60,536 nucleotides of DNA from Chthoniobacterales bacterium (GTDB lineage: Bacteria > Verrucomicrobiota > Verrucomicrobiia > Chthoniobacterales > UBA10450): contig DATDFJ010000128.1 in assembly GCA_036522675.1 (NCBI GenBank), positions 1 to 60,536 of the forward strand, in the 5' to 3' direction. Below the pieces are notes generated by a model that worked only from the letters and a program-made list of their open reading frames with translations, did not search any database and had not been told where the DNA came from. Below, in pieces: positions 10,935 through 46,718 of this stretch; position 1 is the stretch's first letter, and each line of letters opens with the position of its first letter. The translations under genes and the position numbers were made by a program.

Positions 10935-10971
10935 CTACGGGCGCAGCAACTTTATCGAAAAGGAGTTTTTT

Positions 10972-15225: not shown

Positions 15226-15274
15226 CAATCGGACGACTTGAGAAACAACCGCCGTCACGAGGGCTATTTTATCG

Positions 15275-16450: not shown

Positions 16451-16480
16451 ATGCCGGCCGTACGCGGCCCTTGTGTTGCA

Positions 16481-20378: not shown

Positions 20379-20421
20379 CGCGCGGCGGACTCGCGCGCAG
20401 CCGCGGCAGACGCGGAACGTT

Positions 20422-21690: not shown

Positions 21691-21703
21691 TCGGGCGGCG
21701 GTC

Positions 21704-22897: not shown

Positions 22898-22942
22898 ACT
22901 ACAAGCCGGCTTGATGCAAAAAAACGCAGGACATACGGTGTT

Positions 22943-25342
22943 ATGAAGGGTACGAAGAACGTCCCATTGCTTCCTGAGATTGGCGTTTTAGCGCTGGTGC
23001 CCGATGATTGGGATGTATCGTGGCAGCCGCGGCATCACGTGCTCAGCCGTTTATCGCGCTATTTCCACGTTGCTTGGGTGAATCCGGCTCCTGAATGGCG
23101 CCAACTCGGGAAAGCCTGGTACAAGTCGTCGCTGCCTAAGCTCGGCGTAACGGCCGACTTCCCTGGATTCCTGATCTATCGTTCTCATGTTTTTCCGAAA
23201 TTGTATCGACCGGAATGGGTCGCGACGCGATTTTACGAGCAGCGTCTGAAGAACGCGCGAAAAATGCTTTTAGCAAGGGGCTGCAAAAAAATTATTCTTT
23301 ATGTCTGGCGACCAGAGTTCGAGCCCGCGCTTCGGATGATACCGCATGATGCTAGCTGCTACCATATCGACGACGAATATTCGTTTTCGGAAATCGAAGT
23401 TGCCCTCGATCCGGCTGAAATTCGCCTGATGAAGGAAGTCGATCAGGTCTTCATCCATTCGCCCGGTCTCCTGGAGAAAAAAGGCGCGATCAACCCGCGG
23501 ACGGTTTTTGTTCCGAACGGTTGCGACTATCAGGCATATTCTCAGCTGCAGCCCGAGCCGCCCGACCTTGCGCGCATTCCGCACCCGCGGATCGGCTACA
23601 CCGGCCGCATCAAGCGCCAGCTCGATTGGGGTCTGATTACAGGACTCGCGACCAAACACCCCCAGTGGTCATTCGTCTTCGTCGGTCCTGTAACTCAGGA
23701 TCCCGAGGTGGCGGAGGCGGTCCGGACACTATCCAATCGTCCGAATGTCCATTTCCTGGGCTACAAGTCCACCGAGCAGCTAGCCGCGTACCCGCAGCAC
23801 TTCGACGTCTGCATCATGCCGTACCGGTTAAACGATTACACGCGGTATATCTATCCGCTGAAGCTCCACGAATACCTCGCAAGCGGGCGGCCGGCCGTCG
23901 GCTCGCCGGTCCTTTCTCTCATGAAATTTGGACACCTCGTCCGGCTGGCACGGACGGCCGACGAGTGGTCGAGCGCGATCCAGGATTGTCTGAATCCTGC
24001 GTCCACGACGACGGTTACGGAACGCCAATCCGTTGCACAACGTCACGACTGGGACAGCCTCGTCAAGATTATCGCACTCACAATATGTGAGCGGCTGGGA
24101 GATCAATGGCTTCAAAAGATTCAGACGGAGGCGTCCGTTGAAAGCTCCGGCTTACGACCGCCCGACACGGCGCTCCAAATGTCGGTGCCCCTGAACGGGA
24201 CCGCCGGGACTGCGCAGGCGCGCGTCGCGCTGCAGCGCTGCGATCGATTCGTGGCGCGCACGATGAATTGGCTCTACGACCATTTGCGGTTCGTGACCGG
24301 CTATGCTCCGGTGATTCTGTGCGACGCGCTGCAAAATCGCGAGGAATTCCCGGAGCTCGACGCGCGTTGTTTCAATCGAGAAAGTCTGCCGCGTCAAATC
24401 TGGCGCGGTATAGCCGGAAATCGCCCCACGCCTTACGACGCCTGGCAATTGGGCAGGCTTCACCCCCAGATTCTCCACTCTCATTTCGGCTATGTCGCAA
24501 CGCAGGACATCAAGCTGCAGCGGAGCCTCGATATCCCCTGGGTCGTGAGCTTCTATGGCGCCGACGTCTATGAGATCGATTTTGCCGAAAGAGACCGGAC
24601 GTATTCCCAAGTGTTTCAGCGCGCGGATCGGGTTCTGGCCTTGGGACCGTCGATGGCGGCGCGGCTCGAGCTTCTCGGATGCCCGCGGGAGCGCATCGCG
24701 ATTCACCCGCTCGGCGTCGATGTCGAAAATCTGCCGCAGAAGCCGCGGGTGCTCGATTCCGGCGCGCCTTTGAAGATCCTTTTCGCGGGAACGTTCCGCG
24801 AAAAGAAGGGCATTCCCTACGTCGTCGAGGCGATCTCGCTGGTCAAGCGCGCAGGGATTTCCGTCGAGCTTTATCTGGTGGCGGGAGAGATGGGCAAGGC
24901 GGGCGAGCTGGAGACGAAACAGAAGGTATTCGAGCAGATCCGGCGGCTCGATCTCGAGCGCAATGTCATCTACAAGCCGCTCATGCCGTTCCGCGATCTG
25001 ATACGGCTTGCGCTCGACAGTCATATTTTTGTCGCTCCGAGCGTGACCGCCGCCGACGGCGACGCCGAAGGGACGCCGTTCGTTCTCCAACAAATGATGT
25101 CTACGGCGATGCCCGTTATTGCCACGGTGCATTCCGACATTCCGTATCTTTTCGGCGAGTATGAAAGCCGGCTTGTTGCCGAGCGGGACGCGGAGGCGAT
25201 CGCTGCACGGCTGCAGGAGTATGCGATGCGCCCGCAGATGCTCGTCGAGGACGGTCGCGCGCTCCGTGAGCGTATCCGATCGGCTTTCAACGTCAAGGAA
25301 TGTGCCGAGCGGCTGGGCGGAATTTATGATCAACTCTACTGA
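22943..25342 (+). CDS. Two-module glycosyltransferase (N-terminal TuaH-like GT-B module plus C-terminal GT4 module)
   Basis: 799 aa. The first module includes GYTGRIKRQLDWGLI...YPLKLHEYLASGRPAVGSPV. The second includes FAGTFREKKGIPYV...AEGTPFVLQQMMSTAMPVIATVHSDIPYLF. Confidence 0.75.
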   Translation: MKGTKNVPLLPEIGVLALVPDDWDVSWQPRHHVLSRLSRYFHVAWVNPAPEWRQLGKAWYKSSLPKLGVTADFPGFLIYRSHVFPKLYRPEWVATRFYEQRLKNARKMLLARGCKKIILYVWRPEFEPALRMIPHDASCYHIDDEYSFSEIEVALDPAEIRLMKEVDQVFIHSPGLLEKKGAINPRTVFVPNGCDYQAYSQLQPEPPDLARIPHPRIGYTGRIKRQLDWGLITGLATKHPQWSFVFVGPVTQDPEVAEAVRTLSNRPNVHFLGYKSTEQLAAYPQHFDVCIMPYRLNDYTRYIYPLKLHEYLASGRPAVGSPVLSLMKFGHLVRLARTADEWSSAIQDCLNPASTTTVTERQSVAQRHDWDSLVKIIALTICERLGDQWLQKIQTEASVESSGLRPPDTALQMSVPLNGTAGTAQARVALQRCDRFVARTMNWLYDHLRFVTGYAPVILCDALQNREEFPELDARCFNRESLPRQIWRGIAGNRPTPYDAWQLGRLHPQILHSHFGYVATQDIKLQRSLDIPWVVSFYGADVYEIDFAERDRTYSQVFQRADRVLALGPSMAARLELLGCPRERIAIHPLGVDVENLPQKPRVLDSGAPLKILFAGTFREKKGIPYVVEAISLVKRAGISVELYLVAGEMGKAGELETKQKVFEQIRRLDLERNVIYKPLMPFRDLIRLALDSHIFVAPSVTAADGDAEGTPFVLQQMMSTAMPVIATVHSDIPYLFGEYESRLVAERDAEAIAARLQEYAMRPQMLVEDGRALRERIRSAFNVKECAERLGGIYDQLY

Positions 25343-25391
25343 TGATTCTTTGGAAACGCTCCACGCGGAGGTTTCCGGCTAATCTCGACCC

Positions 25392-26714
25392 ATGAATCTC
25401 ACCGCAAATATCCTGACCACTTTATCCGCGCGGGTCGTCATGCTCCTGCTGGCGCTGATCTCCTCGATAGTGCTGGCGCGCTATCTGGGGCCCGAAGGCC
25501 GCGGGTTATTCGCGTTGGTCCTTTTGCTGCCCGAGCTCGCCAGGAACCTTGGCCTTCTCGGCTTCGAGCAGGCGAACGCGGTGTATGCGGGACTGCTGCC
25601 GCAACAGAGGTCGACGCTCATCTGGCATTCGGCGCTTATAGCATGCGTGCTTGGAGGCGCATTCGCCGCGCTGGGAGCGGGTTACGTCGCCTTGGGGGCG
25701 CCCGGTTTCGATACGCTGATTCAGGGGCCTATTTATCTCTATCTGATTCCGCTCGCCGTGATGCCGTGCAAATTGCTGTTTGAATATTGGACGGCGATCC
25801 TGCGCGGGATGAATCGTATTCTCTTGCTCAATGTCCTCGATGTCGGCGTAAAGGCGGTCCTGCTGCTGTTCGCCGTGCTCTTCGTGGTGTGGTTTGGACT
25901 CGGCGTGCAGGGCGCGGTGCTGGCGGACTTTCTGATCAGCGTAGCCGGCGTAGCCGTGATCGCGCTGCTGCTCAAGACTGTCGGGGTATTGGGCACGCCG
26001 AACTTTGATAAGCCGCTATGGCGTCGCTCGGTCGGCTTCGCGCTTCCGGCGTACGGCGGGAGCTTGACGGCTTACCTCAATTACCGCGTCGATGAGGTGA
26101 TCGTCGCCATGCTTCTTCCCGCCGAGCAGCTAGGTTTTTACGTCATCGCCGTCGGTCTAGCCGAGCGTCTGTGGATTCTTCCTGGAGCGGTGACTTCGGC
26201 GCTCCTGCCCCATCTCACGAATAGACGCGAGCGCGATCCGCAAATCTCCGTTGCGGTCGCGCGCCACGTCATGATCTGGATCGGCTTGATCTGCATCGGC
26301 GTTTTTGTCTTTGCGGGCCTCGGCATACGTTTGTTGTATTCTTCCGCTTACGAAGGAAGCATCGCGCCGCTGCGCTGGCTGCTGCCCGGCATATTCACGC
26401 TAAGCCTCGGAAAGGTACTGGTGACGGAGCTGCTCGCGCAAGAGAAGCCCCGCTATACCGTCTGGGCGTCGGGAATCGCCGCCTTCGTCAACATCGCGGC
26501 GAATCTCGTTCTCGTGCCGCGCATAGGGATTTCGGGCGCGGCTCTTGCCTCGTCGATCTCATATACGGTTCTTTCGGTTATTTTGATGTGGCTGTTTGTG
26601 CGCGAAACCGGTGTATCCTGGACCGCCTTTTTGATCCGGCAAAGCGACTTCACCGCGTATTCGGTGCTGTGGCGGCAGTGGCGGCCCAGCCTGAAGCGTC
26701 TTCGCTTGGCGTAA
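25392..26714 (+). CDS. Polysaccharide flippase, Wzx-like (MOP superfamily)
   Basis: 440 aa and polytopic (about 12 hydrophobic segments). The N-terminus MNLTANILTTLSARVVMLLLALISSIVLARYLGPEGRG is typical of oligosaccharide flippases. Confidence 0.75.
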   Translation: MNLTANILTTLSARVVMLLLALISSIVLARYLGPEGRGLFALVLLLPELARNLGLLGFEQANAVYAGLLPQQRSTLIWHSALIACVLGGAFAALGAGYVALGAPGFDTLIQGPIYLYLIPLAVMPCKLLFEYWTAILRGMNRILLLNVLDVGVKAVLLLFAVLFVVWFGLGVQGAVLADFLISVAGVAVIALLLKTVGVLGTPNFDKPLWRRSVGFALPAYGGSLTAYLNYRVDEVIVAMLLPAEQLGFYVIAVGLAERLWILPGAVTSALLPHLTNRRERDPQISVAVARHVMIWIGLICIGVFVFAGLGIRLLYSSAYEGSIAPLRWLLPGIFTLSLGKVLVTELLAQEKPRYTVWASGIAAFVNIAANLVLVPRIGISGAALASSISYTVLSVILMWLFVRETGVSWTAFLIRQSDFTAYSVLWRQWRPSLKRLRLA

Positions 26715-26720
26715 ACACCC

Positions 26721-28616
26721 ATGTGCGGCATCGTAGGACTCTATCGCTGGCCCGGACGCTCCGAGGCGGTCGCGGCGCGGCTCGCCGAGATGTGCCGGAC
26801 GATCGTCCACCGCGGTCCCGACGATCAGGGCACGTTCATCGACGGCGATATCGCGCTCGGGATGCGCCGGCTTAGCATCATCGACGTCGCCGGCGGCCGG
26901 CAGCCGATCGAAAACGAGGACGGCACGGTCAAGATCGTCTTCAACGGCGAAATTTACAACTACCGGGATTTGCGCGGCGAGCTGGCGGCGCGCGGCCATC
27001 GCTTCGCCACGCGCACGGACACGGAGACGATCGTTCACGCGTACGAGGAGCACGGCGTCGACTGCGTCGAGCGGCTGAACGGCATCTTCGCCTTCGCCCT
27101 GTGGGACGCATCCAGGCGGCGTCTCTTCGTCGCGCGCGACCGTATGGGCGTCAAGCCGCTCTACTACGCCGAAACGCTACGCGGGCTCGCCTTCGCGTCC
27201 GAAATCAAGGCGCTGCTGACGCTGCCGGAGATCTCCGCGACGCTCGATGTCTCGGCTGCGGCGGAGTTCTTTCGCCTCGGCTTCGTGCCGCCGCCGCGCA
27301 CGCTTTTTCAAGGAATCCGCAAGCTGCCGCCCGGCCATCGGCTGATCGCGCAGGACGGCGCCGTAAAAATCGAGCGTTACTGGGATCTCGAGTTCGCCGA
27401 GCCGTCGGCGCCGGCGAGCTTCGAGGAGTGCCGCGACGAGCTGCGGGAAATTTTGCGGCAAGCCGTCGCGGATCAGATGGTGAGCGACGTCCCGCTCGGC
27501 GCGTTTTTGAGCGGCGGCGTCGATTCGAGCGCTGTCGTCGCCTTTATGAAGCAGGCGGCGGGGAACGGCGTCCGCACGTTCACGATCGGCTTCGATTCGA
27601 AGCTGCACGCGTATCATAACGAAGCGCCGTACGCCGAGGCGGTCGCGAAAGAGCTCGGCACGCAGCATCAGACGCTCATCGTCCGCCCGCGCGTCGTCGA
27701 TCTCATGCCGGCGCTCATCGAGAAGCTCGACGAGCCGCTTACCGACACGTCGTTTCTGGTCACTTATCTAATTTCTGAGCTCGCGCACCGCGACGTGAAA
27801 GTCGCGCTCTCGGGCGTCGGCGGCGACGAGCTGTTCGGCGGCTACCGCCGCTATCTCGCGCCGGCGATACAAAAAGCCTCAGCCTGGATTCCGGGGGGTC
27901 TCCGCCGCGCGCTCGGCGAGCGCCTCGCGGCCCTGCCCGCAGATCGCGGGTCCGTCATCGGGAATCTCGGCCGCTACGCCAAGGCATGGGGGCGCAGCCT
28001 CCATCTTCCGCTCGGCCGTCAGTATCTGGATCTCGTCTCGGCGCTGCCCGCGGCCCAGGTTGCGACACTGCTTCGCGCCGACTTCGGCTCGCGCGATCCC
28101 GGCGAAGCGCTGGTCGAATGGTTCGACCAAGCCGGTTCAGCCGATGCTCTCGACCGGTTGCTTTACGTCGACGCCAAGTCGGCGCTACCGGAGAGCTTGC
28201 TGCTGTTGACGGATAAAATGGGCATGGCCACTTCCCTGGAAATTCGCGTGCCGCTGCTCGACAACCGCGTCGTCGATTTCGTCCGCCGCGTGCCGGGCGA
28301 CTACCGCCTGCGCAGCTTCAGCCTGAAGCGTTTGCTCAAGGCGGCGGTGAAAGGCGTCGTTCCCGATTTCGTGCTGACGCGATCGAAGCGCGGTTTCGGA
28401 ACGCCGATGGGCACGTGGCTCCGCGGCGATCTTCGGCCGATGATCGACGATTTGCTGAGCGAGGAGAGGCTCACGCGCGGCGGTCTGTTCGACGCGCGCG
28501 CCGTCAAGGATATCGTCGCCGCGCACAATGCCGGCCGGGAGGACTTTACCGAGGCGATCACGGCGCTATTGACGTTCGAGATATGGCGCGAACGATTCGG
28601 GGTGGCGCTGCCATGA
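26721..28616 (+). CDS. Asparagine-synthase-family glutamine amidotransferase (AsnB-like, copy 1)
   Basis: MCGIVG N-terminal nucleophile Cys, the SGGVDSS PP-loop, 631 aa. Confidence 0.9.
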   Translation: MCGIVGLYRWPGRSEAVAARLAEMCRTIVHRGPDDQGTFIDGDIALGMRRLSIIDVAGGRQPIENEDGTVKIVFNGEIYNYRDLRGELAARGHRFATRTDTETIVHAYEEHGVDCVERLNGIFAFALWDASRRRLFVARDRMGVKPLYYAETLRGLAFASEIKALLTLPEISATLDVSAAAEFFRLGFVPPPRTLFQGIRKLPPGHRLIAQDGAVKIERYWDLEFAEPSAPASFEECRDELREILRQAVADQMVSDVPLGAFLSGGVDSSAVVAFMKQAAGNGVRTFTIGFDSKLHAYHNEAPYAEAVAKELGTQHQTLIVRPRVVDLMPALIEKLDEPLTDTSFLVTYLISELAHRDVKVALSGVGGDELFGGYRRYLAPAIQKASAWIPGGLRRALGERLAALPADRGSVIGNLGRYAKAWGRSLHLPLGRQYLDLVSALPAAQVATLLRADFGSRDPGEALVEWFDQAGSADALDRLLYVDAKSALPESLLLLTDKMGMATSLEIRVPLLDNRVVDFVRRVPGDYRLRSFSLKRLLKAAVKGVVPDFVLTRSKRGFGTPMGTWLRGDLRPMIDDLLSEERLTRGGLFDARAVKDIVAAHNAGREDFTEAITALLTFEIWRERFGVALP

Positions 28617-29779
28617 TGTCTGCGTTCGCTACGCTCGCGTGGACGGCGCTCGCCGTCCTGCTCTACGTGTATATCGTTTATCCGGCGCTGCTCGCGCTGC
28701 TCGCGCGCTTCCGAACCCGTGTCGTGACGCGGAAAAATATCGCTCCGTCCGTCACGCTGATCATCTCCGCGTACAACGAAGAGCGGACGATAGAAAAAAA
28801 GCTGCGCAACACGGTCGCGCTCGACTACCCTAAAGAGCAGCTCGAGATCCTGGTCGTGTCCGACGCCTCGACCGATAAAACCGACGAGATCGTCGCCGGC
28901 TTCGCCGGGCAGGGCGTGAAGCTTCTGCGCCAGGCGCGACGCCAGGGAAAGACCGCCGGGCTCAACGCCGCCGTCCGCGCCGCGCGCGGCGACGTGCTCG
29001 TGTTTAGCGACGCCAACATCCTTTACCGCACCGATGCCGTCGGGCGGTTGGTCCAAAGTTTCGCGGATCCGTCGGTCGGATGCGTCACGGGCGACTCACG
29101 TTACGATGAAGACGAGGTCTCACAGGCGCACGCTCAGGAAAACGCCTATTGGGGTTATGAGCGGTTCATCCGTGCGATGGAAAGCCGCCTTGGCAGCACG
29201 GTGGGCGGGGACGGCGCGATCTTCGCGATCCGCCGCGGCCTCTATACGCCGCTCGCGGCCGATGCCATCAATGATCTAATGACGCCGTTGCAGATCGTTC
29301 TCGGCGGACACCGGGCGGTATTCGAGCCGGAGGCCGTCGGCTTCGAGCCGACCGCCGGCGATTTCCGCGGTGAGTTCCGCCGCAAACGACGCATCGTCAA
29401 TCGCAGCTGGCACGCGGTGATGAGTGTACCGCAGGCGCTGAGCATTCCTCGAATGGGATGCTTTGCCTGGCAGGTGTGGTCGCACAAGGTCTTGCGCTGG
29501 CTCGCTCTGCCGCTCGTCTTGCTCGGCGCGCTCGGCTGCATATTTGCGGCGCCGCTCGGGCTCGTTTATCGGCTTGGCGCATGGGGTTTTGCCGCAAGTG
29601 TGGCGCTCGCGCTGTTCGGCGCGATTATTCCCGAGAGCGCCGGCCGCTGGTCTCGGCTCCCGCACACGGCTCTATACTTCTATCTGGTCAACGTCGCGGC
29701 TCTGCTGGGCATCATCAGCGCGATGGCGGGACGCGTGGAGACGTTCTGGACGCCGGAACGAGAGAAGGCGCGCACATGA
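28613..29779 (+). CDS. Membrane-embedded family-2 glycosyltransferase (synthase-like topology)
   Basis: An N-terminal TM segment is followed by VTLIISAYNEERTIEKKL...ILVVSDASTDKTDEIV...VFSDANILY. The C-terminus has several TM segments. The ATG at 28613 forms an ATGA overlap with the AsnB-like stop; the listed 28415 start is an in-frame read-through of the upstream gene. Confidence 0.8.
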   Translation: MMSAFATLAWTALAVLLYVYIVYPALLALLARFRTRVVTRKNIAPSVTLIISAYNEERTIEKKLRNTVALDYPKEQLEILVVSDASTDKTDEIVAGFAGQGVKLLRQARRQGKTAGLNAAVRAARGDVLVFSDANILYRTDAVGRLVQSFADPSVGCVTGDSRYDEDEVSQAHAQENAYWGYERFIRAMESRLGSTVGGDGAIFAIRRGLYTPLAADAINDLMTPLQIVLGGHRAVFEPEAVGFEPTAGDFRGEFRRKRRIVNRSWHAVMSVPQALSIPRMGCFAWQVWSHKVLRWLALPLVLLGALGCIFAAPLGLVYRLGAWGFAASVALALFGAIIPESAGRWSRLPHTALYFYLVNVAALLGIISAMAGRVETFWTPEREKART

Positions 29780-31014
29780 GTGGGCAAGTAAATCTTCGGA
29801 CGCGTATATCGGCGGCGCTGCCGCCGGGATTCCGTCGGGTGGCGAGCGGCGTTGAGGATGCCGTGGCATCCCGGCTGTACGTCCCCGCTCACTTGAGATT
29901 CTGGCTCCGCGACGCGGCGCTGTCTGGAGCGAGTGTGGCGCCGCGCAGTGTTTGCGAGCGCGCGCTCGTCGATTGGCTCAAGCGAGCACAGGACGCCGCC
30001 GATGGCGGCGGCGTCGCCGCATACTACGACTTTAACGACGGCTGGAGCGCCGGATATCCCGAAACGACAGGCTACATCATCGTGACCGCACTGCAAGCGG
30101 CGGCACGCCTCGACGATTTCGACCTGAAGGAGCGCGCGCGCCGCATGGCCGATTGGGAGCTCGGTATTCAACTGCCCGAAGGTGCTTGGCAGGGCGGTGT
30201 CGTGAGCGCGCCGCGCATTCCGTCGGTCTTCAATACCGGACAGATCGTTCAAGGCATGGTCGCAGCCGCCTCCGCTTTCGGCAATCAATCCTATCTCGAC
30301 GCTGCGGCGAAAGCCGGCCGCTGGCTCGGCCTTCAACAGGATACCGACGGCGCATGGCGCCGCTACACGTATAACGATTTTCCCAACGCGTATTCGACGC
30401 GCGTCGCTTGGCCGCTGATCTCACTGGCGGACGCCGCCGGAGAGCCTGAATTCCGGCGCACCGCGGTCCGTTATCTCGAATGGGCGGCGCGCTGCCAGGA
30501 TGAAAGCGGCTGGTTCTCTAACTGCACACTCGAGCCCGGCACCGACGCGCTGACGCATACGCTAGCCTATACGATCGAGGGCTTCATCGAAGCGGGCGTG
30601 TTGCTGCGCGACGAGCGCTGGATTACGATCGGCCGCCGCGCAGCGGACGTGCTGCTGCGGCGACATGAGCTGCGCGGTCGTCTGGCGGGCGCGTACGCCT
30701 CTGGCTGGCGCGGCGATTTTTCCTACAACTGCGTCACCGGGTCCGCTCAGATGGGCCGTATCTGGGGACGGTTGTTCTCGCTCACCGACGACGCGCGCTA
30801 TCTCAACGCTGCGCTCAAGATCAACGATTACGTCTCCGGTCTCGTCGATCTCGCCTCTGTGCACGAAGGGCTTCGCGGCGGGCTCAAGGGCTCGGACCCT
30901 GTCTGGGGTCCCTACATGCGATTTCGCATGCCCAGCTGGGCGGCGAAGTTCGCCCTGGATTCCTTTTTTCACGAAGCCGACGGCTTGGCGCGTCTGGAAG
31001 AAAACAATCGATGA
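29776..31014 (+). CDS. Hypothetical alpha/alpha-toroid-like protein (prenyltransferase/terpene-cyclase-like or glycan-epimerase/lyase-like repeats)
   Basis: 412 aa from the ATG at 29776 (ATGA overlap). It has repeated helical W/G-rich segments (GGVAAYYDFNDGWSAGYPETTGYII, LPEGAWQGG, DTDGAWRRY, DESGWFSN). I recognise no catalytic motif. Confidence 0.4.
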   Translation: MSGQVNLRTRISAALPPGFRRVASGVEDAVASRLYVPAHLRFWLRDAALSGASVAPRSVCERALVDWLKRAQDAADGGGVAAYYDFNDGWSAGYPETTGYIIVTALQAAARLDDFDLKERARRMADWELGIQLPEGAWQGGVVSAPRIPSVFNTGQIVQGMVAAASAFGNQSYLDAAAKAGRWLGLQQDTDGAWRRYTYNDFPNAYSTRVAWPLISLADAAGEPEFRRTAVRYLEWAARCQDESGWFSNCTLEPGTDALTHTLAYTIEGFIEAGVLLRDERWITIGRRAADVLLRRHELRGRLAGAYASGWRGDFSYNCVTGSAQMGRIWGRLFSLTDDARYLNAALKINDYVSGLVDLASVHEGLRGGLKGSDPVWGPYMRFRMPSWAAKFALDSFFHEADGLARLEENNR

Positions 31015-31796
31015 ACGTCACGATTCTTTGCCGTTACCTGAACAGCGACTATGCGCGCGCGGTTCTGCGCGCGTTGAACGCAAGCGGGATGACAGGCGTC
31101 AACGTCGTCGCGGCCGAAGCCGTCACGCCGAGAAATCTCGACGCGCTTTGGCGCACGCACGGCTGGCGGCTTCCGCTGGTCGCCGCACGCCACCTGCTGC
31201 TGCCGCTGAGAGGAGCGGCGCGCCGCGCCGTGAGCAAGAACGGCGCAGCCGCCGGGCCGACGCTCCAATCCGAAACCATCGCCCAGGGTGGTCGGTTCAT
31301 CGCCGTCGAAGAGATAAACGGCGAAGCTTCATGCAAGGCGCTGCGCGAGCTCGCCACCGATCTCACGATCCTTGCGGGTACGCCGATCATCCGTCCGCCG
31401 GTGCTCGAAGTGCCGCGCATCGGGACACTCAACGCGCATCAGGGCGAGCTGCCGCGGTTTCGCGGCATGAACGTCATCGAATGGTCGATCTTCGAAGGGG
31501 CCGCTCCGACGATCACGATTCACTTCGTCGACCCTGGCGTCGATACCGGCGACATCGTCGCCGAAGAGCGGATCCCGCTGCGGCCGGGCGACACGTTGAT
31601 CACCGTAAAACAGCGCGCCGGGGAGCAGCAGGTCGAGATGCTCGCGCGCGTCGCCGCGCAGGCGCTCGCCGGCACGCTGAGCCGCCGGCCGCAGCGCGTG
31701 CAGGATGGCCAGCAATATTTTATAATGCATCCGAAGCTCCGGACGATCGCCGAGAAGCGGCTCCAGCAGCGGCTGCGTAGGCCGGCAGGGGCGTAG
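31011..31796 (+). CDS. Formyltransferase-family protein (Fmt/PurN/ArnA-N-like)
   Basis: LNAHQGELPRFRGMNVIEWSI (Asn-x-His) and HFVDPGVDTGDIV (Asp) give the N-H-D triad of formyltransferases. ATGA overlap start. Confidence 0.75.
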   Translation: MNVTILCRYLNSDYARAVLRALNASGMTGVNVVAAEAVTPRNLDALWRTHGWRLPLVAARHLLLPLRGAARRAVSKNGAAAGPTLQSETIAQGGRFIAVEEINGEASCKALRELATDLTILAGTPIIRPPVLEVPRIGTLNAHQGELPRFRGMNVIEWSIFEGAAPTITIHFVDPGVDTGDIVAEERIPLRPGDTLITVKQRAGEQQVEMLARVAAQALAGTLSRRPQRVQDGQQYFIMHPKLRTIAEKRLQQRLRRPAGA

Positions 31797-31805
31797 CATT
31801 TCTGC

Positions 31806-32351
31806 ATGAACGCAGAGCCGGAGAAATTTCGCGTAGCTGTCAAGGCCGACATCGCGCGTCTGCGCGAAGACGGCCCGGGCCTTCGGCCGCTCATCCGCGG
31901 CCTGTTGTCGCAGGGATTTCAGGCGCTGTTCATCTATCGCGTCTTTCGCTGGTTTCACGAGCGCAACATTCCCACGCAGCCTGTGCGATTCGTCTTCGAG
32001 CGATTTATCGAGATCACGACCGGAATTTCGATTCCTGTCGAGGCGCGGATCGGCAAGGGACTGAGAATTCATCATTTCGGCGGCATTGTCATTCACCCCG
32101 CCGCGGCGCTCGGCGAGGAGTGCACGATTTATCACGGCGTTACGCTGGGCGATCTCGGGATGCACGGCGGCGCGCCGCGCGTCGGCGATCGCGTCGTCAT
32201 CGGCGCCGGCGCGAAGATCATCGGCGAGATCGAAATCGGCGACGATAGCCGCATCGGCGCCAACGCCGTCGTTGTGCGTTCCGTCCCGCCGGGTAGCATT
32301 GCCGTCGGCGTGCCCGCGGTCGTGAAAAATTGTTCACGCGTGGATTTATAG
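31806..32351 (+). CDS. Hexapeptide-repeat O-acetyltransferase, serine acetyltransferase (CysE/EpsC)-like
   Basis: A left-handed beta-helix repeat run: IGKGLRIHHFGGIVIHPAAALGEECTIYHGVTLG...VGDRVVIGAGAKIIGEIEIGDDSRIGANAVVV. Confidence 0.8.
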   Translation: MNAEPEKFRVAVKADIARLREDGPGLRPLIRGLLSQGFQALFIYRVFRWFHERNIPTQPVRFVFERFIEITTGISIPVEARIGKGLRIHHFGGIVIHPAAALGEECTIYHGVTLGDLGMHGGAPRVGDRVVIGAGAKIIGEIEIGDDSRIGANAVVVRSVPPGSIAVGVPAVVKNCSRVDL

Positions 32352-32359
32352 GGGAATTG

Positions 32360-33136
32360 ATGACAACAGAAAAAACATCGATGCAAAGCAAGCACGAAAT
32401 CGAGCGGACATTTCACGACCATAAAGCGACATCAGACTACGGTTCGGATCCGCATAATTTTTACTCCGCCGGCGGGCTGAACATGATGTGGCGCTCGTAT
32501 CTGACCGCTGTCGGCGATCTTCATGGCAAGCACATTCTTGATTTCGGCTGTGGCGAAGGGTGGAGCAGCGTTGAATACGCCAAGCGCGGAGCAATCGTTC
32601 ACTCCTTCGATCTTTCACCGGAGAGCGTGCGGAATCTAATGCAGCAAGCCAAACGCGACGGCATCGCCGAGCGAATACATCCTGCCGTGATGGCGGCTGA
32701 ATGTTTAGCTTATCCCGACAACACCTTCGATTTGGTCCTTGGGGTCGCGATCCTGCATCACACGGATCCCATTTCTGCAGGGACGGAAGTTTCGCGCGTC
32801 TTGAAGCCCGGAGGTAGAGCTCTGTTCATTGAGCCGCTGTCTCATAATATTTTTTTGAAACTGTTTCGATGGCTGACGCCTAACCGACGCACTCCAACGG
32901 AACAGCCGATGAGCGTTCAGCAAATATCGGAATTCGGACGGTTTTTCAACCGCGCAGGATATCGCGGTTGCTACTTCTTATCGATATTTCCGCAGGGTCT
33001 CCTGTGGGCCACGGGCAATCGGAGCTTATTTCGTTGGTCTTTGGGCGCAACCGAGCTTGTCGACGGATGGCTTTTGAAAAGCTTTGCGTTTCTGAACCGA
33101 TACTGTTGGTCGTCGATCATCGAAGTAGAGAAATAA
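32360..33136 (+). CDS. Class I SAM-dependent methyltransferase
   Basis: Motif I ILDFGCGEGWSSVEYAKRGAIVHSFDLS and motif II/III DLVLGVAILHH. Start at the ATG at 32360. Confidence 0.8.
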   Translation: MTTEKTSMQSKHEIERTFHDHKATSDYGSDPHNFYSAGGLNMMWRSYLTAVGDLHGKHILDFGCGEGWSSVEYAKRGAIVHSFDLSPESVRNLMQQAKRDGIAERIHPAVMAAECLAYPDNTFDLVLGVAILHHTDPISAGTEVSRVLKPGGRALFIEPLSHNIFLKLFRWLTPNRRTPTEQPMSVQQISEFGRFFNRAGYRGCYFLSIFPQGLLWATGNRSLFRWSLGATELVDGWLLKSFAFLNRYCWSSIIEVEK

Positions 33137-33139
33137 TCG

Positions 33140-34147
33140 ATGGACGAAGTGTTCCCGCGAAAGAATCCAACTTCGGAGATCCCGATTAGGGTTTCCGTCG
33201 TCATCCCTGCGCGCAACGAGGAGATCCATGTAGGCGATCTTTTGGCCTCGCTCGAAGCGCTTGATTTCTCTCGCGAGCATTTAGAAATCATCGTGGTGAA
33301 CCACGACTCCAACGACGGTACGAGCGCGATCGCGCGAAAGGCGGGCGCGCGAGTTGTGGACAAGCATGGTGGCTCAATAGCCAGCGCGCGCAATGCCGGC
33401 GCACGTCAAGCAGCTGGCGACGTCATTGCATTTATCGATGCGGACTGCACCGTGGCGAAAGATTGGCTCAACGTTGCGTTGCCGCATTTTTCCGATCCAC
33501 GAGTCGGCGCGGTCGGAAGGAGCTGGCCGCTGGTGCCCGCCGAACCCTCGACATGGGCGCGGAGCATCCTCCGTAAGCAAGCCGAAATTCAGGCAGGATC
33601 GTCGCGCGGTCGCTGGCTCTCCTCCGGCAACATGTTGGTGCGCAGGCACGTGTTTTTCGAGGTCGGCGAGTTTGACGAAGCACTAGGGACGTGCGAAGAC
33701 GTCGATCTCTCCTATCGAATCGCAAGCAAGTACCTCATCATCGAGGATCTGAAAATACGCTGGTGGCATCACGGCGAGCCAAGGACTTTCTGGCAGCTGT
33801 TTCGGAAGGAGCTGTGGAGGGGGCGCGACGGCCTGCTCGGAGTGGCCCGCCACGGTTTTCGTCTTGACGAGATGCCCAGCCTTATTTTGCCATTGTATTT
33901 TTTGCTAACGCTGGCGCTGTTTCTCTCAAGCCTGCTGGTCGTAAGCTTCGGGCGATGGCAATTGCCTCTAGCGGCATGCGCGGGCGCCGCGTTTTTTATT
34001 CCATTGTTTTTATTGGCCGCATTCCGGAGCCTGCGGACAGGAGGGCTTCGCTATGTGGGTCATTTTACTGTTTTTTATGCGGTTTATTTTTTAGCGCGTG
34101 GCTTCAGTCCGTTTTACGCGTGGCCGAATATCAAACGGCAGAGTTAG
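33140..34147 (+). CDS. Family-2 glycosyltransferase with C-terminal TM segments (polyprenyl-phosphate glycosyltransferase-like topology)
   Basis: VSVVIPARNEEIHVGDLL...IIVVNHDSNDGTSAIA...AFIDADC (DxD). The hydrophobic C-terminus is LILPLYFLLTLALFLSSLLVV... Confidence 0.8.
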   Translation: MDEVFPRKNPTSEIPIRVSVVIPARNEEIHVGDLLASLEALDFSREHLEIIVVNHDSNDGTSAIARKAGARVVDKHGGSIASARNAGARQAAGDVIAFIDADCTVAKDWLNVALPHFSDPRVGAVGRSWPLVPAEPSTWARSILRKQAEIQAGSSRGRWLSSGNMLVRRHVFFEVGEFDEALGTCEDVDLSYRIASKYLIIEDLKIRWWHHGEPRTFWQLFRKELWRGRDGLLGVARHGFRLDEMPSLILPLYFLLTLALFLSSLLVVSFGRWQLPLAACAGAAFFIPLFLLAAFRSLRTGGLRYVGHFTVFYAVYFLARGFSPFYAWPNIKRQS

Positions 34148-34168
34148 CGCACCGTTCAGATTCCGGGA

Positions 34169-35551
34169 TTGGCCGTGAAAAAAGTTCTGATGATCTCATA
34201 TTTTTTTCCGCCCGTCGGCGGCATAGGTACCGCTGGATCGCAGCGGACCTTGAAATTTGCGAAGTACATTCAGTCGCACGATTGGACTCCCGTCATTCTG
34301 ACGGTGCGCGAGTCGCATTACGAATCCTATTTCGAGCTCGATGCAAGTCTATTGGGGAAGGTGCCTTCAGGAATCAACATCGTGAGGACGCCGGTGATCA
34401 GGTGGCTGACAAAGCTTCTGGAGCTGAAGAATCGAGGCCGCGCGAGCATCCCGACCTCCGGTCACATCGAGAACGCGACGAACGGTAATCATTCCAATGG
34501 CGCGGCGCCGGCGTCCCGTAACCGCTATCAGAAGTTAAAAAATGCGTTTACCGATCTTTTCGAGATACCTGACGGAGAAATTGGCTGGCTCATTCCGGGA
34601 GTCATCAGCGGTTTGCGGGCGATTAGACGCGAGGGCGTGGATGTCATCTACACCAGCGGAAAGCCCTGGACCGCGCATCTTATCGGGGTCGTCCTCCGGG
34701 GCCTCACCGGCAAACCGCTCGTCACCGATTTTAGGGATCCCTGGTTGACGAATCCTTTTCGCGATCAAAGCATGAAGTTTCGAAATCGAGTAGAAGGGTA
34801 TTTAGAGCAAAAGGTAGTGTCAGAGGCGGACCTCGTGATCACGAATACCGTTCTGCTTAGAGACGAGTTTATTGCGCGTTTTCCACGTGAGGCTGAAAGC
34901 AAATTCGTGGCCTTACTCAACGGGTATGACCCGGACGACTTTCCTCGCTCGGCGGCCGGAGCCGAGGTCGGCGACGGCAAGTTCGTCCTCGTCCATTCCG
35001 GTTTTTTATACGGCAAACGGGACCCTCGCAATTTCCTCGAAGCGTTGACGCTGCTGTTACGGACCCAAAGAATACCGCGCGAGAAGATCGAAGTTCATTT
35101 CGTGGGTTCAGTCGAGCTGCCTTATAACCTGCCCGAGTTCCTGCGCGCTAACGGCCTTGAGGGGGTCGTCCATTTGGTTCCTCACGTTCCTTTTCAGCGC
35201 AGCCTTGAATATCTGTCGAGAGCGACAGCGCTTCTTTTGCTTCAGCCTGGAACGGAGACTCAGATCCCCTCGAAGCTGTTTGAATACATCGCGATGGGAA
35301 GGCCGATTCTAACGATCTCCCCGCTACACGGCGCCACGTCCAAGTTGGTCATGGAGGAGTCCTTGGGAATCGCAACGGATGCGGAGAATGTGAACGAAAT
35401 AGCTCTCGCCTTAGAGCGCTTGTATCACGATTGGAAAGGCGGCTCCCGTTTCATCGGCGGGTCCACGGCGCGAGAAAAGTTTAATGTCCGGAAGGCCGCG
35501 GAGAATTTGTCGCGCAACTTCGATCGGCTCCTCGACCGCGGCGAAAGTTAA
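34169..35551 (+). CDS. Glycosyltransferase, GT-B fold (GT4-like)
   Basis: KKVLMISYFFPPVGGIGTAGSQRTLKFAKYI N-terminus and C-terminal PSKLFEYIAMGRPILTISP. The start is uncertain (TTG 34169 or GTG 34175). Confidence 0.7.
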   Translation: MAVKKVLMISYFFPPVGGIGTAGSQRTLKFAKYIQSHDWTPVILTVRESHYESYFELDASLLGKVPSGINIVRTPVIRWLTKLLELKNRGRASIPTSGHIENATNGNHSNGAAPASRNRYQKLKNAFTDLFEIPDGEIGWLIPGVISGLRAIRREGVDVIYTSGKPWTAHLIGVVLRGLTGKPLVTDFRDPWLTNPFRDQSMKFRNRVEGYLEQKVVSEADLVITNTVLLRDEFIARFPREAESKFVALLNGYDPDDFPRSAAGAEVGDGKFVLVHSGFLYGKRDPRNFLEALTLLLRTQRIPREKIEVHFVGSVELPYNLPEFLRANGLEGVVHLVPHVPFQRSLEYLSRATALLLLQPGTETQIPSKLFEYIAMGRPILTISPLHGATSKLVMEESLGIATDAENVNEIALALERLYHDWKGGSRFIGGSTAREKFNVRKAAENLSRNFDRLLDRGES

Positions 35552-35568
35552 GTTCCTTTGCATCGATC

Positions 35569-38232
35569 GTGGCCTTGGCGATGATCAACGCGGATAATTT
35601 TTTACATGGCGCTCCTATTCCTCTAATCGTCGAGGAGTTCGCCGGTATTCCCCGTAAAGACGAGCCGGTAAATGTGGGCTTTCCGCTCCCTAGGGGAGCG
35701 TTATTCGATCCCGCCAAGATCGCCGTTTATGCGCCGGATAATCGCCGTCGACCGGTTCAAGCGAGCGTTTTGTCGCGCTGGTCCGACGACAGCATTAAGT
35801 GGTTGCGGTTGGACTTTCAAGCCGACGCCGCCGCGCATGAGGCCGCCGAATATAAGATCGTCCTCGGCGGCGAAAGCTCGGAATATGCCGGCCGCGCCGG
35901 CAATGTTGTCCGTCAAGTCGGCGCTGTCATCGAGATAAATACCGGTCGCGCGAATTTTGAGGTCGATGTTCGCTGCTGCAAACCGTTTCAGCGCGTCGTG
36001 GTCAACGGGGTTGATGTCTTGGAGAACGCCGAGATTGCACTTCACGATAACGGTGGCAGACAATATCGGCCTTGGATAACGCAGGTGTCTGTGGAGAGTG
36101 AAGGCCCGCTGCGAACGACATTGTTGCAGAAGGGCCTGTTTCGCTCGGACGCCGATGCGATACTGGCTCACTTCATATCCCGTTTGAGTTTCTTCCATGG
36201 TCGCTCGATCGTCGAGTTCAAATTCACCATTCGCAATCCCAAGTCGTCGTTCCATCCGAACGGGTTTTGGGATTTAGGCGACGCGGGCTCGATTTATTTC
36301 GACCGAGTGACGCTTGGTCTGGCGCTGAAGGAAGCTCGGGGTTCTCGAATCAGCTGGTCGGAAAAACCAGGGCTCCTACCCCGACAACACGAAGGAAAGA
36401 GCCTGGAAATTTATCAGGATTCCAGCGGCGGCGAGAATTGGCGCAGCTCCAATCATGTCAACAGGCATGGAAACATCGCCAGCGTTTTTCGAGGATATCG
36501 CGTGCGGGCTGATGACACGGTGGTGTTAGAGGGCTCCAGAATTACCCCTCATTTATATCTGCAGAATGATCGCGGCGGCATAAGCGCGGCTATAGTCGGC
36601 TTCTGGCAGAACTTTCCAAAGGCCCTGTCGGCGGACGGCAACCGCCTCACGATCGGTCTTTTCCCCGAACAGTTTCAGGACTCTTTTGAACTCCAGGGTG
36701 GAGAGCAAAAAACTCATACGGTGTGGTTCGATTTCGTAGGCGGCCAAAATCAATCGACAGATCTTCAATGGGTGCATGATCGATTGATACCTCGTGCGTC
36801 GCCCGAATGGTACACCGACTGCGGCGTTTTTCCGTATTTCGCGCCGCGATTAAAAGCGGAGGAGACTCCAAAATCGGTTTCTTCTTTACAGTCGCTCGTT
36901 GATAGCGCGGTTGAAGGCGCGAATACCTTCTTCGACCGGCGGGAGATTATAGACGAGTACGGCTGGCGTAATTTTGGCGACCTTTATGCCGATCATGAAG
37001 CTGTCGGTCATCGCGGTAGCGCCCCGTTGGTCGCCCATTACAACAATCAATACGATGTGATCTACGGCGCCATACGGGAGTTCACCAGGAGCGGCAACCG
37101 TAACTGGTATCGGCTTTTCGACGAGCTTGCGAGGCATGTCGTCGACATCGACCTTTATCATACTTCTGAGGATAGGCCGGCGTTCAACGGCGGGTTTTTT
37201 TGGCATACGGAACATTATACGGACGCGGCTTTGGCTACTCACCGCGCGTACTCACGATCCGCGCAGACGAAAGAGCGGCATCTCGCCGGGGGTGGACCGT
37301 CAAGCGAACATAACTACACCAGCGGGTTGACCAACTACTATTTCCTCACCGGGGACAGTATGGCGCGAGAAGCCGTCCTGGACTTGGCGAACTGGGTCAT
37401 CGCGATGGATGCGCCCAGCGGGGGTGCGCTTGGCCTGTTGGACCGCCGGCCAAGGGGACTCTCCACGATGACCGCGTCGTGGAAATATCATGGTCCCGGT
37501 CGGGGATCGGCGAATTCCATCAACGCGCTGCTGGACGCATATGCGCTAACTCGCGATCAAGGGTATCTAAACAAAGCGGAAGCATTGATAAGGCGATGCA
37601 TTCACCCAAAGGAAAACATCGAGATCAGAAAATTAGACGACGTGGAATACCGATGGTCGTATACTGTCTTCCTTCAGATGCTGGGGAAATACCTGGACGC
37701 GAAAATAGAAGAAGGCGAGATCGATTTCATGTACGCTTACGCCAGGGAGAGTCTGCTTCATTATGCACGCTGGATGCTCGATCACGAAGTCCCCTATAAA
37801 GAAGTTTACCACAAGGTGCTGATTCCGACCGAAACTTGGCCCGCTCAGGATATTCGAAAGAGTAATGCTTTCAAGTTTGCCGCCAGGCACGCAGATGAAC
37901 CGCTACGCTCGCTATTTCTTCAGAAGTCCGATTACTTTTTCGAGCGCTGCATAACAGATTTGCTGGCGTTCCAAACCTGCGGCTTGACGCGGCCTATCGT
38001 CTTGATGCTGACCAACGGATTCATGCATTCTTACGTTTTGGCTCGCGGACTAGACCGCGCGCCCGCTCCGGCGGCGGAATACGATTTCGGACCGTTTCGC
38101 AACTTTCGTCCGCAATTTTATGAGCTCTGCTGGCTGAGGGAGCGATTACGGACCGCGGTCGGCAAGGGCATCTCTGTTGCGCGACGCCTCGGCCAGAGCT
38201 TGCGTATAAGACAACAGGAAGCCGTCAACTAA
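35569..38232 (+). CDS. Large hypothetical protein with an N-terminal beta-barrel-like domain and a central alpha/alpha region; possible glycan lyase/hydrolase-like enzyme
   Basis: 887 aa, no signal peptide or TM seen. The N-terminal pattern PVNVGFPLPRGALFD...VQASVLSRWSDDSIKWLRLDF resembles the N-domain of exo-rhamnogalacturonan-lyase-like (PL26-type) proteins. It also has a central HTEHYTD...SSEHNYTSGLTNYYFLTGD. The assignment is tentative. Confidence 0.35.
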   Translation: MALAMINADNFLHGAPIPLIVEEFAGIPRKDEPVNVGFPLPRGALFDPAKIAVYAPDNRRRPVQASVLSRWSDDSIKWLRLDFQADAAAHEAAEYKIVLGGESSEYAGRAGNVVRQVGAVIEINTGRANFEVDVRCCKPFQRVVVNGVDVLENAEIALHDNGGRQYRPWITQVSVESEGPLRTTLLQKGLFRSDADAILAHFISRLSFFHGRSIVEFKFTIRNPKSSFHPNGFWDLGDAGSIYFDRVTLGLALKEARGSRISWSEKPGLLPRQHEGKSLEIYQDSSGGENWRSSNHVNRHGNIASVFRGYRVRADDTVVLEGSRITPHLYLQNDRGGISAAIVGFWQNFPKALSADGNRLTIGLFPEQFQDSFELQGGEQKTHTVWFDFVGGQNQSTDLQWVHDRLIPRASPEWYTDCGVFPYFAPRLKAEETPKSVSSLQSLVDSAVEGANTFFDRREIIDEYGWRNFGDLYADHEAVGHRGSAPLVAHYNNQYDVIYGAIREFTRSGNRNWYRLFDELARHVVDIDLYHTSEDRPAFNGGFFWHTEHYTDAALATHRAYSRSAQTKERHLAGGGPSSEHNYTSGLTNYYFLTGDSMAREAVLDLANWVIAMDAPSGGALGLLDRRPRGLSTMTASWKYHGPGRGSANSINALLDAYALTRDQGYLNKAEALIRRCIHPKENIEIRKLDDVEYRWSYTVFLQMLGKYLDAKIEEGEIDFMYAYARESLLHYARWMLDHEVPYKEVYHKVLIPTETWPAQDIRKSNAFKFAARHADEPLRSLFLQKSDYFFERCITDLLAFQTCGLTRPIVLMLTNGFMHSYVLARGLDRAPAPAAEYDFGPFRNFRPQFYELCWLRERLRTAVGKGISVARRLGQSLRIRQQEAVN

Positions 38233-39440: not shown

Positions 39441-39470
39441 GTCCGTGAACGCGATGGCGGGAACAACATA

Positions 39471-41399: not shown

Positions 41400-41476
41400 G
41401 CACCAGCTCAAGCGAATTGCTTCGATGGCGATCTTCGGGCCATGAAAGCTTGTAGCCAACTTAGAAAGTAACGACG

Positions 41477-42649: not shown

Positions 42650-42711
42650 AGCGCCTACGGACGCCGCACAGCGCGCCCGAACCCAAGTCTTGTCATCTCC
42701 ACGAAGCTGAA

Positions 42712-43671: not shown

Positions 43672-43681
43672 AAGCCAAACT

Positions 43682-45526: not shown

Positions 45527-45530
45527 GCGA

Positions 45531-46706: not shown

Positions 46707-46718
46707 AAGCGAGGGATT

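Follow-up and report, generated by a model that had tools for sequence, protein, structure and literature searches.

A toroid protein and a formyltransferase as a conserved gene pair, and putative two-subunit glycan formyltransferase, in an exopolysaccharide locus of a Chthoniobacterales bacterium

Sugar N-formyltransferases are understood as stand-alone enzymes acting on nucleotide amino sugars that are supplied by a neighbouring aminotransferase. The contig DATDFJ010000128.1 of a Chthoniobacterales bacterium raises the question of what such an enzyme would act on when no aminotransferase of this kind lies beside it. In the following, this contig is called the window; it is the entire 60,536-bp contig C128 of a 2.99-Mb, Nitrospirota-like metagenome-assembled genome (MAG; 343 contigs, 92.85% complete). 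Four of its genes stand in series within an exopolysaccharide locus: a glutamine-hydrolysing amidotransferase of the asparagine synthase family (AsnB1), a membrane family-2 glycosyltransferase (GT2m), a toroid protein (Tor) and a formyltransferase-fold protein (Fmt). These identities had already been assigned in a sequence-only reading of the window and were found to be correct by Pfam/NCBIfam searches, hydropathy and structure modelling. Our preferred explanation, to which we assign a probability of roughly 0.55, is that Tor and Fmt form a two-subunit, sometimes fused, formyltransferase using N10-formyl-tetrahydrofolate (N10-formyl-THF), in which the toroid would hold or prepare the glycan acceptor.

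Conservation of the gene pair and of the four-gene order

At least 583 toroid loci were found in species-representative genomes, and 80 of them were analysed by searching their stop-to-stop open reading frames (ORFs) with the proteins of the window (phmmer, E 1e-8). In 36 of the 80 loci, Fmt is the gene immediately after Tor; it shares one ORF with Tor in L044 and stands 958 nt away in L079. The loci with both genes span Nitrospirota, Methylomirabilota, Pseudomonadota, Latescibacterota, Hydrogenedentota, Actinomycetota, Bacteroidota and Planctomycetota. In 17 of 37 loci the two reading frames overlap by 4 nt (Fmt start over Tor stop) and in another 16 by 8 nt, a count that leans to overlaps because the start codon nearest to the Tor stop was chosen. 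Furthermore, both proteins occur as a single polypeptide: P0085 (646 aa) consists of Tor followed by Fmt, the fusion P0154 (705 aa) shares 38% identity with Tor over 349 residues, and a cluster of such fusions in the ESM Atlas (69 members of 675 aa) carries PF00551 in 91% of them and has a template modelling (TM) score of 0.87 to Tor. Another candidate fusion, P0153 (667 aa), was left uncounted, as no significant similarity to Tor was seen over its N-terminal part (E 0.66).

The order AsnB-GT2m-Tor-Fmt, on the other hand, was encountered in 3 of the 80 loci (L001-L003), all of them from Nitrospiraceae. The neighbourhood mining suggested in the sequence-only reading thus did recover the four-gene signature, though in this one family, and its view of the four genes as one conserved pathway had to be given up. 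In L001-L003 the whole block down to a PcRGLX-like gene is syntenic with the window; AsnB and GT2m still overlap there, by ATGA or GTGA, and the GT2m-to-Tor overlap is absent. GT2m orthologues (518-534 bits) were detected in these three loci only, among the 80. The hexapeptide acetyltransferase (Hex) and the methyltransferase (MT1), correctly placed behind the four genes by the earlier reading, keep their order in L001-L004, and in L004 (Methylomirabilales) a carbamoyltransferase stands upstream of Tor-Fmt-Hex-MT1. Altogether, the functional and evolutionary unit is Tor together with Fmt, two genes rather than four.

A Tor tree of 81 rows, none of them dropped, was calculated with a quick IQ-TREE run. 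On it, the window branches together with L001-L004 (support 99). A proteobacterial clade of 29 rows (support 100) carries Fmt in 27, and the other two, L021 and L039, are on contigs with 367 and 773 nt left downstream of the toroid gene. The presence of Fmt, mapped as a label on this tree, changes 9 times, compared with 27 times for shuffled labels.

In Betaproteobacteria, the genes follow the order stp2-like family-4 glycosyltransferase (GT4), AsnB, GT4, GT4, CapK-like adenylate-forming gene, Tor, Fmt and Wzy, and Thiobacillus-type loci read CapK-like-Tor-Fmt-Wzy. In the available part of a published description, the loci of Rubrivivax gelatinosus psc1 and Thauera MZ1T consist of GT-AsnB-GT-GT-CapK-Wzy with no Tor-Fmt mentioned (PMC3684757). 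Because similar loci occur both with the pair (Betaproteobacteria) and without it (Rubrivivax, Thauera), Tor-Fmt would be an optional, accessory cassette for glycan decoration. As an additional observation, the CapK-like gene (weak AMP-binding match; DVU1553/PaaK-like) stands directly upstream of Tor in 28 proteobacterial loci, e.g. L005 (6467-7846); in the window it is AsnB, likewise an adenylating enzyme, that lies two genes upstream of the toroid gene.

Regarding the junctions in the window, the three consecutive ATGA start/stop overlaps described earlier are present in the sequence at 28613, 29776 and 31011. The stoichiometric co-translation deduced from them was overstated, however, since an overlap permits translational coupling only. 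Overlaps of 4 nt are frequent in the operon, at 6 of its 32 same-strand junctions, so that three in a row are notable but not exceptional. In base composition, the four genes stand out as a GC-rich island (26721-31796, partly to 32351), with a GC content of 0.64-0.67 and a third-position value (GC3) of 0.73-0.83, while the remaining 29 operon genes have a GC content of 0.50-0.62. As the syntenic blocks of L001-L003 carry no such island, it was rejected as an inherited feature of the block; a recent swap of the four-gene block for a higher-GC allele is possible.

The proteins and the predicted complex

Fmt matches Formyl_trans_N (PF00551) with 72.2 bits (cut-off 26.1), profile positions 69-181 alone being covered. 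Aligned with Fmt of E. coli, its residues N141, H143 and D178 coincide with the catalytic residues, in agreement with the intact N-H-D triad reported in the sequence-only reading. Among 30 Tor-linked Fmt sequences, H143 and D178 never vary, and at least 90% of the sequences have N141. The model of Fmt, with a predicted local distance difference test score (pLDDT) of 90.8, shows the fold in full; beyond it there are a helix of 34 residues inserted at 43-76 and, at the C-terminus, a helix at 241-256. Its best structural matches are tied at Z 20-21 and include the FDH hydrolase domain, ArnA, Fmt and WbkC (2bw0, 1z7e, 4iqf, 5vyr; 202-217 residues, root-mean-square deviation 3.6-5.1), and other sugar N-formyltransferases follow at Z 17-18. 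The methionyl-tRNA formyltransferase model TIGR00460 was missed (55.7 vs 201.5 bits) and no C-terminal tRNA-binding domain is present, the protein ending at residue 261, one helix past the core. Two other genes of the genome, on contigs C132 and C216, match Formyl_trans_N more strongly (176 and 154 bits); because these are taken as the housekeeping pair, the Fmt gene of the window is regarded as an extra copy. Fmt is presumably a catalytically intact N10-formyl-THF-dependent formyltransferase.

The structure of Tor was predicted by AlphaFold2 from a 34-sequence alignment (pLDDT 95, predicted TM score 0.92). The model is a twelve-helix (alpha/alpha)6 double barrel, with the paired helices located at residues 57-411 (DSSP). 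VIA-align superposed it on 7tem, 5zig, 3wiw, 4z4j and 1vd5 with Z 29-32 over 322-345 residues (best about 32). The tied top folds are cellobiose/glucose 2-epimerases (AGE), unsaturated glucuronyl hydrolases (GH88), YPO2471, YteR and sulfoquinovose isomerase, with terpene cyclases lower at Z 25-26, and Foldseek agrees on a six-hairpin fold (E 3e-9 and below). The structure search that the sequence-only reading had proposed for this 412-aa protein therefore led to a fold, but with its matches tied it named no specific family.

At the sequence level, the Pfam hits of Tor remained below the cut-offs, namely SQHop_cyclase_C (25.7/26.1 bits, the best), GH127 (22.1/24.9) and C5-epim_C (21.6/23.3). 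A single-sequence search against solved structures gave no match at E up to 1, and in a profile search the squalene-hopene cyclases were the closest solved proteins, via QW-type repeats only (E 2e-11, each stretch being weak). No hydrophobic segment was detected by hydropathy. The family comprises at least 1,473 homologues at E 0.001 among 8,000 scored candidates, the nearest relatives of the gene coming from Nitrospira and Nitrospiraceae MAGs; in this genome it is a single copy, no second paralogue having been found. Across the 34-sequence alignment, 43 columns are invariant, including E96, D191, H261, C319, K391 and E400 as well as 8 Trp, 5 Tyr and 1 Phe. In the predicted structure, many of the invariant residues sit where alternate helices begin, which is the position of the pocket in six-hairpin enzymes.

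For the Tor-Fmt complex, three prediction runs gave ipSAE interface scores of 0.90, 0.91 and 0.90, whereas the best of 3 controls reached 0.01. In the calibration of this score, 116 of 157 solved complexes came up to the mark, as did 2 of 215 mismatched pairs; this calibration holds only roughly here, as own alignments of both proteins were used. The runs share at least 93% of their contacts, with a partner pLDDT of at least 82. The predicted interface brings the outer helices of Tor (residues 295, 298-299, 340-348 and 404-411) together with residues 161-162 and 234-253 of Fmt, and the matching C-terminal stretch of Fmt is retained in the fusion P0085.

In the case of AsnB1, the N-terminus reads MCGIVG, with the Cys following Met1, and the protein matches Asn_synthase (323 bits) and GATase_7 (164 bits). 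TIGR01536 (cut-off 267.1) is passed by AsnB1 (487.7 bits) and by a second such protein of the locus, AsnB2 (515.7 bits); the XrtA/PEP-CTERM amidotransferase model TIGR03108 (cut-off 816.9) is missed by both (598.4 and 668.5 bits). Enzymes of the AsnB family convert a carboxylate to a carboxamide and make no amine, and an AsnB-like enzyme makes GalNAcAN in Francisella and in P. aeruginosa O6 (WbpS). AsnB1 is probably a uronate-to-uronamide amidotransferase; a UDP-HexNAc dehydrogenase (UDP-ManNAc-DH-like, 301 bits) and a TviC-like epimerase (232 bits) at 52.5-54.9 kb of the window can supply uronic acids for it. An AsnB homologue occurs within 8 kb on either side in 22 of the 38 Tor-Fmt loci and is lacking in the other 16, a frequency that reflects the place of AsnB in this type of locus.

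GT2m matches Glycos_transf_2 (95.6 bits) and has hydrophobic segments at residues 1-33, 292-340 and 352-375. One N-terminal and about three C-terminal hydrophobic segments fit a synthase-like membrane topology. When compared with processive synthases, it scores far below the cut-offs (PgaC_IcaA 74 bits vs 422, NodC 46 vs 550), and the N-terminal GT2 part alone aligns. AsnB-GT2m was also considered as a conserved pair and rejected: in a 150-genome sample of the phylum, 14 of 14 GT2m-like loci had no AsnB within 1.5 kb.

The mechanism that we propose would run as follows. Tor and Fmt would be made together, through the conserved start/stop overlap and at times as one polypeptide, and the C-terminal helix of Fmt would dock on the outer helices of Tor. 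The conserved central pocket of Tor would most likely hold the acceptor, which we take to be an amino sugar in a nucleotide- or undecaprenyl-diphosphate-linked intermediate, to be N-formylated by Fmt. AsnB1 would most likely act apart from the pair, turning the carboxylate of a hexosaminuronic acid into a uronamide, and GT2m would add one sugar; the ATGA linkage of these two genes to Tor-Fmt would be specific to the lineage. While the gene identities, their conservation, the fusions, the intact triad and the predicted interface are direct results, the formyl transfer to a glycan amine, the acceptor-binding function of Tor and the role given to AsnB are what we infer from these data.

Source of the amine, other partners and rival explanations

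As stated in the sequence-only reading, the window lacks a DegT-type aminotransferase: a Pfam scan of 43 of its ORFs found none. When the genome was searched in all six frames, 5 DegT matches were obtained, all on other contigs. Two of these genes are strong, one DesI-like on C213 (543 bits to TIGR04427, cut-off 650) and one cut by the end of C187. Five deacetylases were found in the genome, mostly of the peptidoglycan or PgaB type. C213 (L110, 1-19749) holds a glycan cluster of its own, which carries, beside the DesI-like aminotransferase, ATP-grasp and FemAB-like proteins, methyltransferases (FkbM and others), a sulfotransferase, a 4,6-dehydratase and a 1199-aa GT2-GT2-GT4 protein.

Toroid genes also occur with partners other than Fmt. 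Downstream of 39 Tor genes without Fmt, we found GT4 (17), methyltransferases (3), AsnB, Wzx, FemAB-like proteins and aminoglycoside-type N-acetyltransferases (2 each), as well as GT2, a class I/II aminotransferase, a sulfatase, a Kelch protein and ACP (1 each); in 6 cases no family was matched. Longer Tor homologues are fused to GT4, ATP-grasp (as named in the source), methyltransferase plus Trm112, FemAB-like, GT2 or radical SAM domains. Because the conserved pocket stays constant across these partners, this suggests that the toroid family shares one role, either holding a substrate moiety that the partners have in common or performing a preparatory step that they share. A shared substrate-holding role would fit the diverse transferase neighbours and fusions of the Tor relatives. 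A wider proposal, which we offer only tentatively as a possibility, is that the toroid is a general and interchangeable acceptor module of exopolysaccharide assembly, binding a lipid- or nucleotide-linked glycan, or exposing its amine, and recruiting whichever transferase is adjacent or fused; depending on the locus, this would be a formyl-, acetyl-, aminoacyl-, ATP-grasp-, glycosyl- or methyl-transferase.

Other explanations start from where the amine comes from. In an ordinary formamido-sugar pathway, Fmt would be a soluble enzyme acting on a nucleotide amino sugar, e.g. dTDP-4-amino-4,6-dideoxyglucose, with the aminotransferase encoded elsewhere and Tor acting as a separate enzyme (epimerase, hydratase or hydrolase). 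This would agree with the DesI-like gene on C213 and the second DegT gene on C187, with the window Fmt being the sole Formyl_trans_N gene besides those of C132 and C216, and with WbkC, ArnA, FdtF and PseJ among its structural matches (Z 17-21); formamido and uronamide sugars moreover co-occur in the Francisella O-antigen, according to the part of the source available (PMC10924466). Nevertheless we regard it as unlikely: the fusions, the kept overlap and a complex score of 0.90 vs 0.01 argue that Tor is no bystander, the C213 cluster has amine-acylating candidates of its own beside its aminotransferase (ATP-grasp, FemAB-like), and a DegT-like ORF, a partial one, lies within 8 kb of a single Tor-Fmt locus out of 38. 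According to the sequence-only reading, the nitrogen to be formylated would instead be generated by AsnB1, the four genes acting in one pathway. The ATGA links, the shared GC-rich island, the AsnB-to-GT2 overlap kept in L001-L003 and the AsnB homologues near 22 of 38 Tor-Fmt loci all speak for a connection of this kind. Because the AsnB family forms carboxamides, as is generally known, it is an unlikely amine source and a poor supplier of formyl acceptors; the four-gene order is restricted to 3 of 80 loci, 16 of 38 Tor-Fmt loci lack a nearby AsnB, a carbamoyltransferase takes the upstream place in L004, and in Rubrivivax and Thauera MZ1T, as far as the available part of their description extends, AsnB occurs without Tor-Fmt. 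Taken together, we find this route to the amine most improbable.

Two further explanations concern Tor itself. It could be catalytic and make the acceptor in place, exposing or generating the amine (e.g. by N-acetyl to N-formyl exchange) or isomerising the sugar, and pass the product to the bound transferase. The invariant E96, D191, H261, C319, K391 and E400 at the position of the six-hairpin active site are in line with this, and so are the partners that acylate free amines (formyltransferase, aminoglycoside-type N-acetyltransferase, FemAB-like, ATP-grasp) and the lack of a separate amine-generating gene near the cassette. Yet the commonest partner, GT4 (17 of 39), needs no amine, and neither do the methyltransferases; none of the tied fold matches points to deacetylation, and we know of no amidase or aminotransferase with the (alpha/alpha)6 fold of Tor, which makes a catalytic toroid distinctly unlikely in our view. 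Alternatively, Tor might bind the polyprenyl (undecaprenyl) carrier and serve as an adaptor through which soluble transferases would reach lipid-linked repeat units. Its likeness to squalene-hopene cyclases, the closest solved proteins by sequence, its best Pfam hit (SQHop_cyclase_C), the aromatic-rich invariant columns and the chemical diversity of its partners would suit such an adaptor. Against it stand the position of that hit below its cut-off, the higher Z-scores of sugar-acting six-hairpin enzymes relative to terpene cyclases and the missing membrane segment, and we consider a lipid-carrier adaptor highly unlikely.

Several points also weigh against the two-subunit formyltransferase that we prefer. 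With tied six-hairpin matches, the predicted fold of Tor names no activity, and its 43 invariant columns persist whatever the partner, which is more enzyme-like than expected from a passive holder. Fmt is tied among sugar N-formyltransferases, Fmt, PurN and the FDH hydrolase domain, both in sequence (E 1e-12 to 1e-7) and in structure (Z 17-21). The passing score of the predicted complex supports binding of Tor to Fmt and does not prove it, and the overlap count has the lean described above. Because at least 6 of the label changes on the Tor tree are forced, the pairing has been gained or lost repeatedly. Lastly, the amine has no evident origin nearby: neither a DegT gene nor a PF01522 deacetylase was detected on the contig by Pfam and six-frame searches, and phmmer searches with the DegT and deacetylase proteins of this genome as queries gave, within 8 kb on either side of 38 Tor-Fmt loci, one partial DegT-like ORF only (edge of L004, 47 bits).

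With its six-hairpin partner and no accompanying aminotransferase, this widespread formyltransferase departs from the stand-alone picture of these enzymes. If the wider proposal of a general acceptor module is true, Tor-Fmt would be the first heterodimeric formyltransferase acting on a glycan instead of a free nucleotide amino sugar, and this action at the glycan level would explain why no aminotransferase travels with the pair. The sequence-only reading could map the combination onto no characterised pathway; in the case of Tor-Fmt this was borne out, as no description of the pair was found in the literature searched, in which subscription journals were not covered. The carriers of Tor-Fmt are nitrifiers, sulfur oxidisers and floc formers, whose exopolysaccharides shape biofilms and activated-sludge flocs and are chemically mostly uncharted. 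Since toroid homologues are named merely 'hypothetical' or 'squalene cyclase repeat', assigning the family a role would provide many genes with an annotation.

The surrounding locus and comparison with known systems

The features of the window are collected in Table 1. Hex is CysE/EpsC/WcaB-like and scores 136 bits to EPS_EpsC, below the cut-off of 150. The exopolysaccharide locus also holds two methyltransferases, and a PAS kinase and a sigma-54 response regulator follow at 55-58 kb of the window. It resembles exosortase/PEP-CTERM-type loci, with all locus-specific NCBIfam models for XrtA/PEP-CTERM loci scoring below their cut-offs in the window, among them PEP_O_lig_1 (140 bits) and stp2 (292 bits). 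Three exosortase-like genes are present on other contigs of the genome (101-117 bits vs the XrtA cut-off of 208).

Table 1. Positions of the genes and loci described in the window
Feature	Position	Strand	Description	Basis
AsnB1	26721..28616	+	631 aa, glutamine-hydrolysing asparagine-synthase-family amidotransferase	Asn_synthase, GATase_7
GT2m	28613..29779	+	388 aa, membrane family-2 glycosyltransferase (from ATG at 28613)	Glycos_transf_2
Tor	29776..31014	+	412 aa, (alpha/alpha)6 toroid with QW-like repeats	predicted structure
Fmt	31011..31796	+	261 aa, formyltransferase-fold protein	Formyl_trans_N
Hex	31806..32351	+	left-handed beta-helix acetyltransferase	Hexapep 45 bits
MT1	32330..33136	+	class I S-adenosylmethionine-dependent methyltransferase	Methyltransf_11 67.6 bits
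Exopolysaccharide locus	16451..48068	+	Wzx/Wzy-type, about 32 kb, many GT4 and GT2 genes	Pfam/NCBIfam
Wzx	25392-26714		in the exopolysaccharide locus	
AsnB2	39471-41399		second AsnB, in the exopolysaccharide locus	
Carbamoyltransferase	43682-45526		in the exopolysaccharide locus	
Wzy/O-ligase-like	46719-48068		with DUF5935, in the exopolysaccharide locus	
Carbamoyltransferase	4960-6747		another copy, upstream of the exopolysaccharide locus	

Two neighbours touch on the toroid family. The PcRGLX-like gene at 35569-38232 encodes a protein of 887 aa whose N-terminal domains are PcRGLX-like and which has a weak toroid stretch similar to GH127, a second toroid-bearing protein in the operon; it is syntenic in L001-L003 (911-982 bits). 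At 41477-42649, a methyltransferase carries an N-terminal Trm112-like zinc ribbon. This architecture is fused to the toroid homologues P0128, P0139 and P0140 and follows the toroid gene in L058.

Further observations concern the remainder of the window and the genome. The genes at 3084-11967 code for a TauD-family dioxygenase, an HddC-like nucleotidyltransferase, a carbamoyltransferase, a GDSL protein, an HddA-like GHMP kinase and two epimerase/reductases, a set suggestive of a sugar pathway of the GDP-heptose type, in which the dioxygenase is unusual. A 1066-aa galactose-oxidase-like protein (Kelch, PKD, Ig) followed by a di-haem peroxidase-like protein occupies 12025-16450, in the middle of the polysaccharide operon. 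At the contig end (58139-60240), an OlsA-like lyso-ornithine-lipid acyltransferase and an N-acyltransferase resembling the C-terminal part of OlsF stand head to head, a pair of genes for ornithine or glycine lipid synthesis. Elsewhere in the genome, near-twin genes were noticed on the contig pairs C342/C284 and C196/C301, namely deacetylases of 293 aa that score almost equally and exosortase-like ORFs of 528 aa; the MAG may contain two strain variants or duplicated contigs.

Compared with known systems, XrtA/PEP-CTERM exopolysaccharide loci share with the window an AsnB-type amidotransferase, an stp2-like GT4, a Wzy/O-ligase with DUF5935, a sigma-54 regulator and a PAS kinase. In Betaproteobacteria, Tor-Fmt sits inside such loci, between the CapK-like gene and Wzy. 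The window differs from them by its NCBIfam scores below the cut-offs and by the location of the exosortase-like genes on other contigs.

In the Francisella O-antigen, according to the available part of its description, the repeat is Qui4NFm-GalNAcAN-GalNAcAN-QuiNAc, with WbtI aminating and WbtJ formylating (PMC10924466). The common trait is a formyltransferase together with an AsnB-type amidotransferase in one polysaccharide locus. The systems differ in that the Francisella amine comes from WbtI in the same locus and no toroid takes part, whereas the contig of the window has no such aminotransferase.

With the six-hairpin enzymes (AGE, GH88/GH105, GH127 and the squalene-hopene QW toroids), Tor shares the predicted fold, QW-like repeats and the placement of conserved residues at alternate helix starts. 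At 10-15% identity, however, the catalytic residues of no named family can be mapped onto it, and Tor is predicted to be cytoplasmic and is paired with biosynthetic transferases rather than degradative genes.

Closest to Fmt are the sugar N-formyltransferases WbtJ, VioF, WbkC, FdtF/QdtF and the N-terminal domain of ArnA, which have in common with it the fold, the Asn-His-Asp triad, the setting in a surface-polysaccharide locus and, presumably, the N10-formyl-THF donor. For an accessory module made of helices there is a loose precedent in QdtF, which has an additional domain of helical (ankyrin) repeats. Unlike these enzymes, Fmt has no cognate DegT beside it, and it alone has a coupled or fused (alpha/alpha)6 toroid partner together with the inserted helix 43-76.

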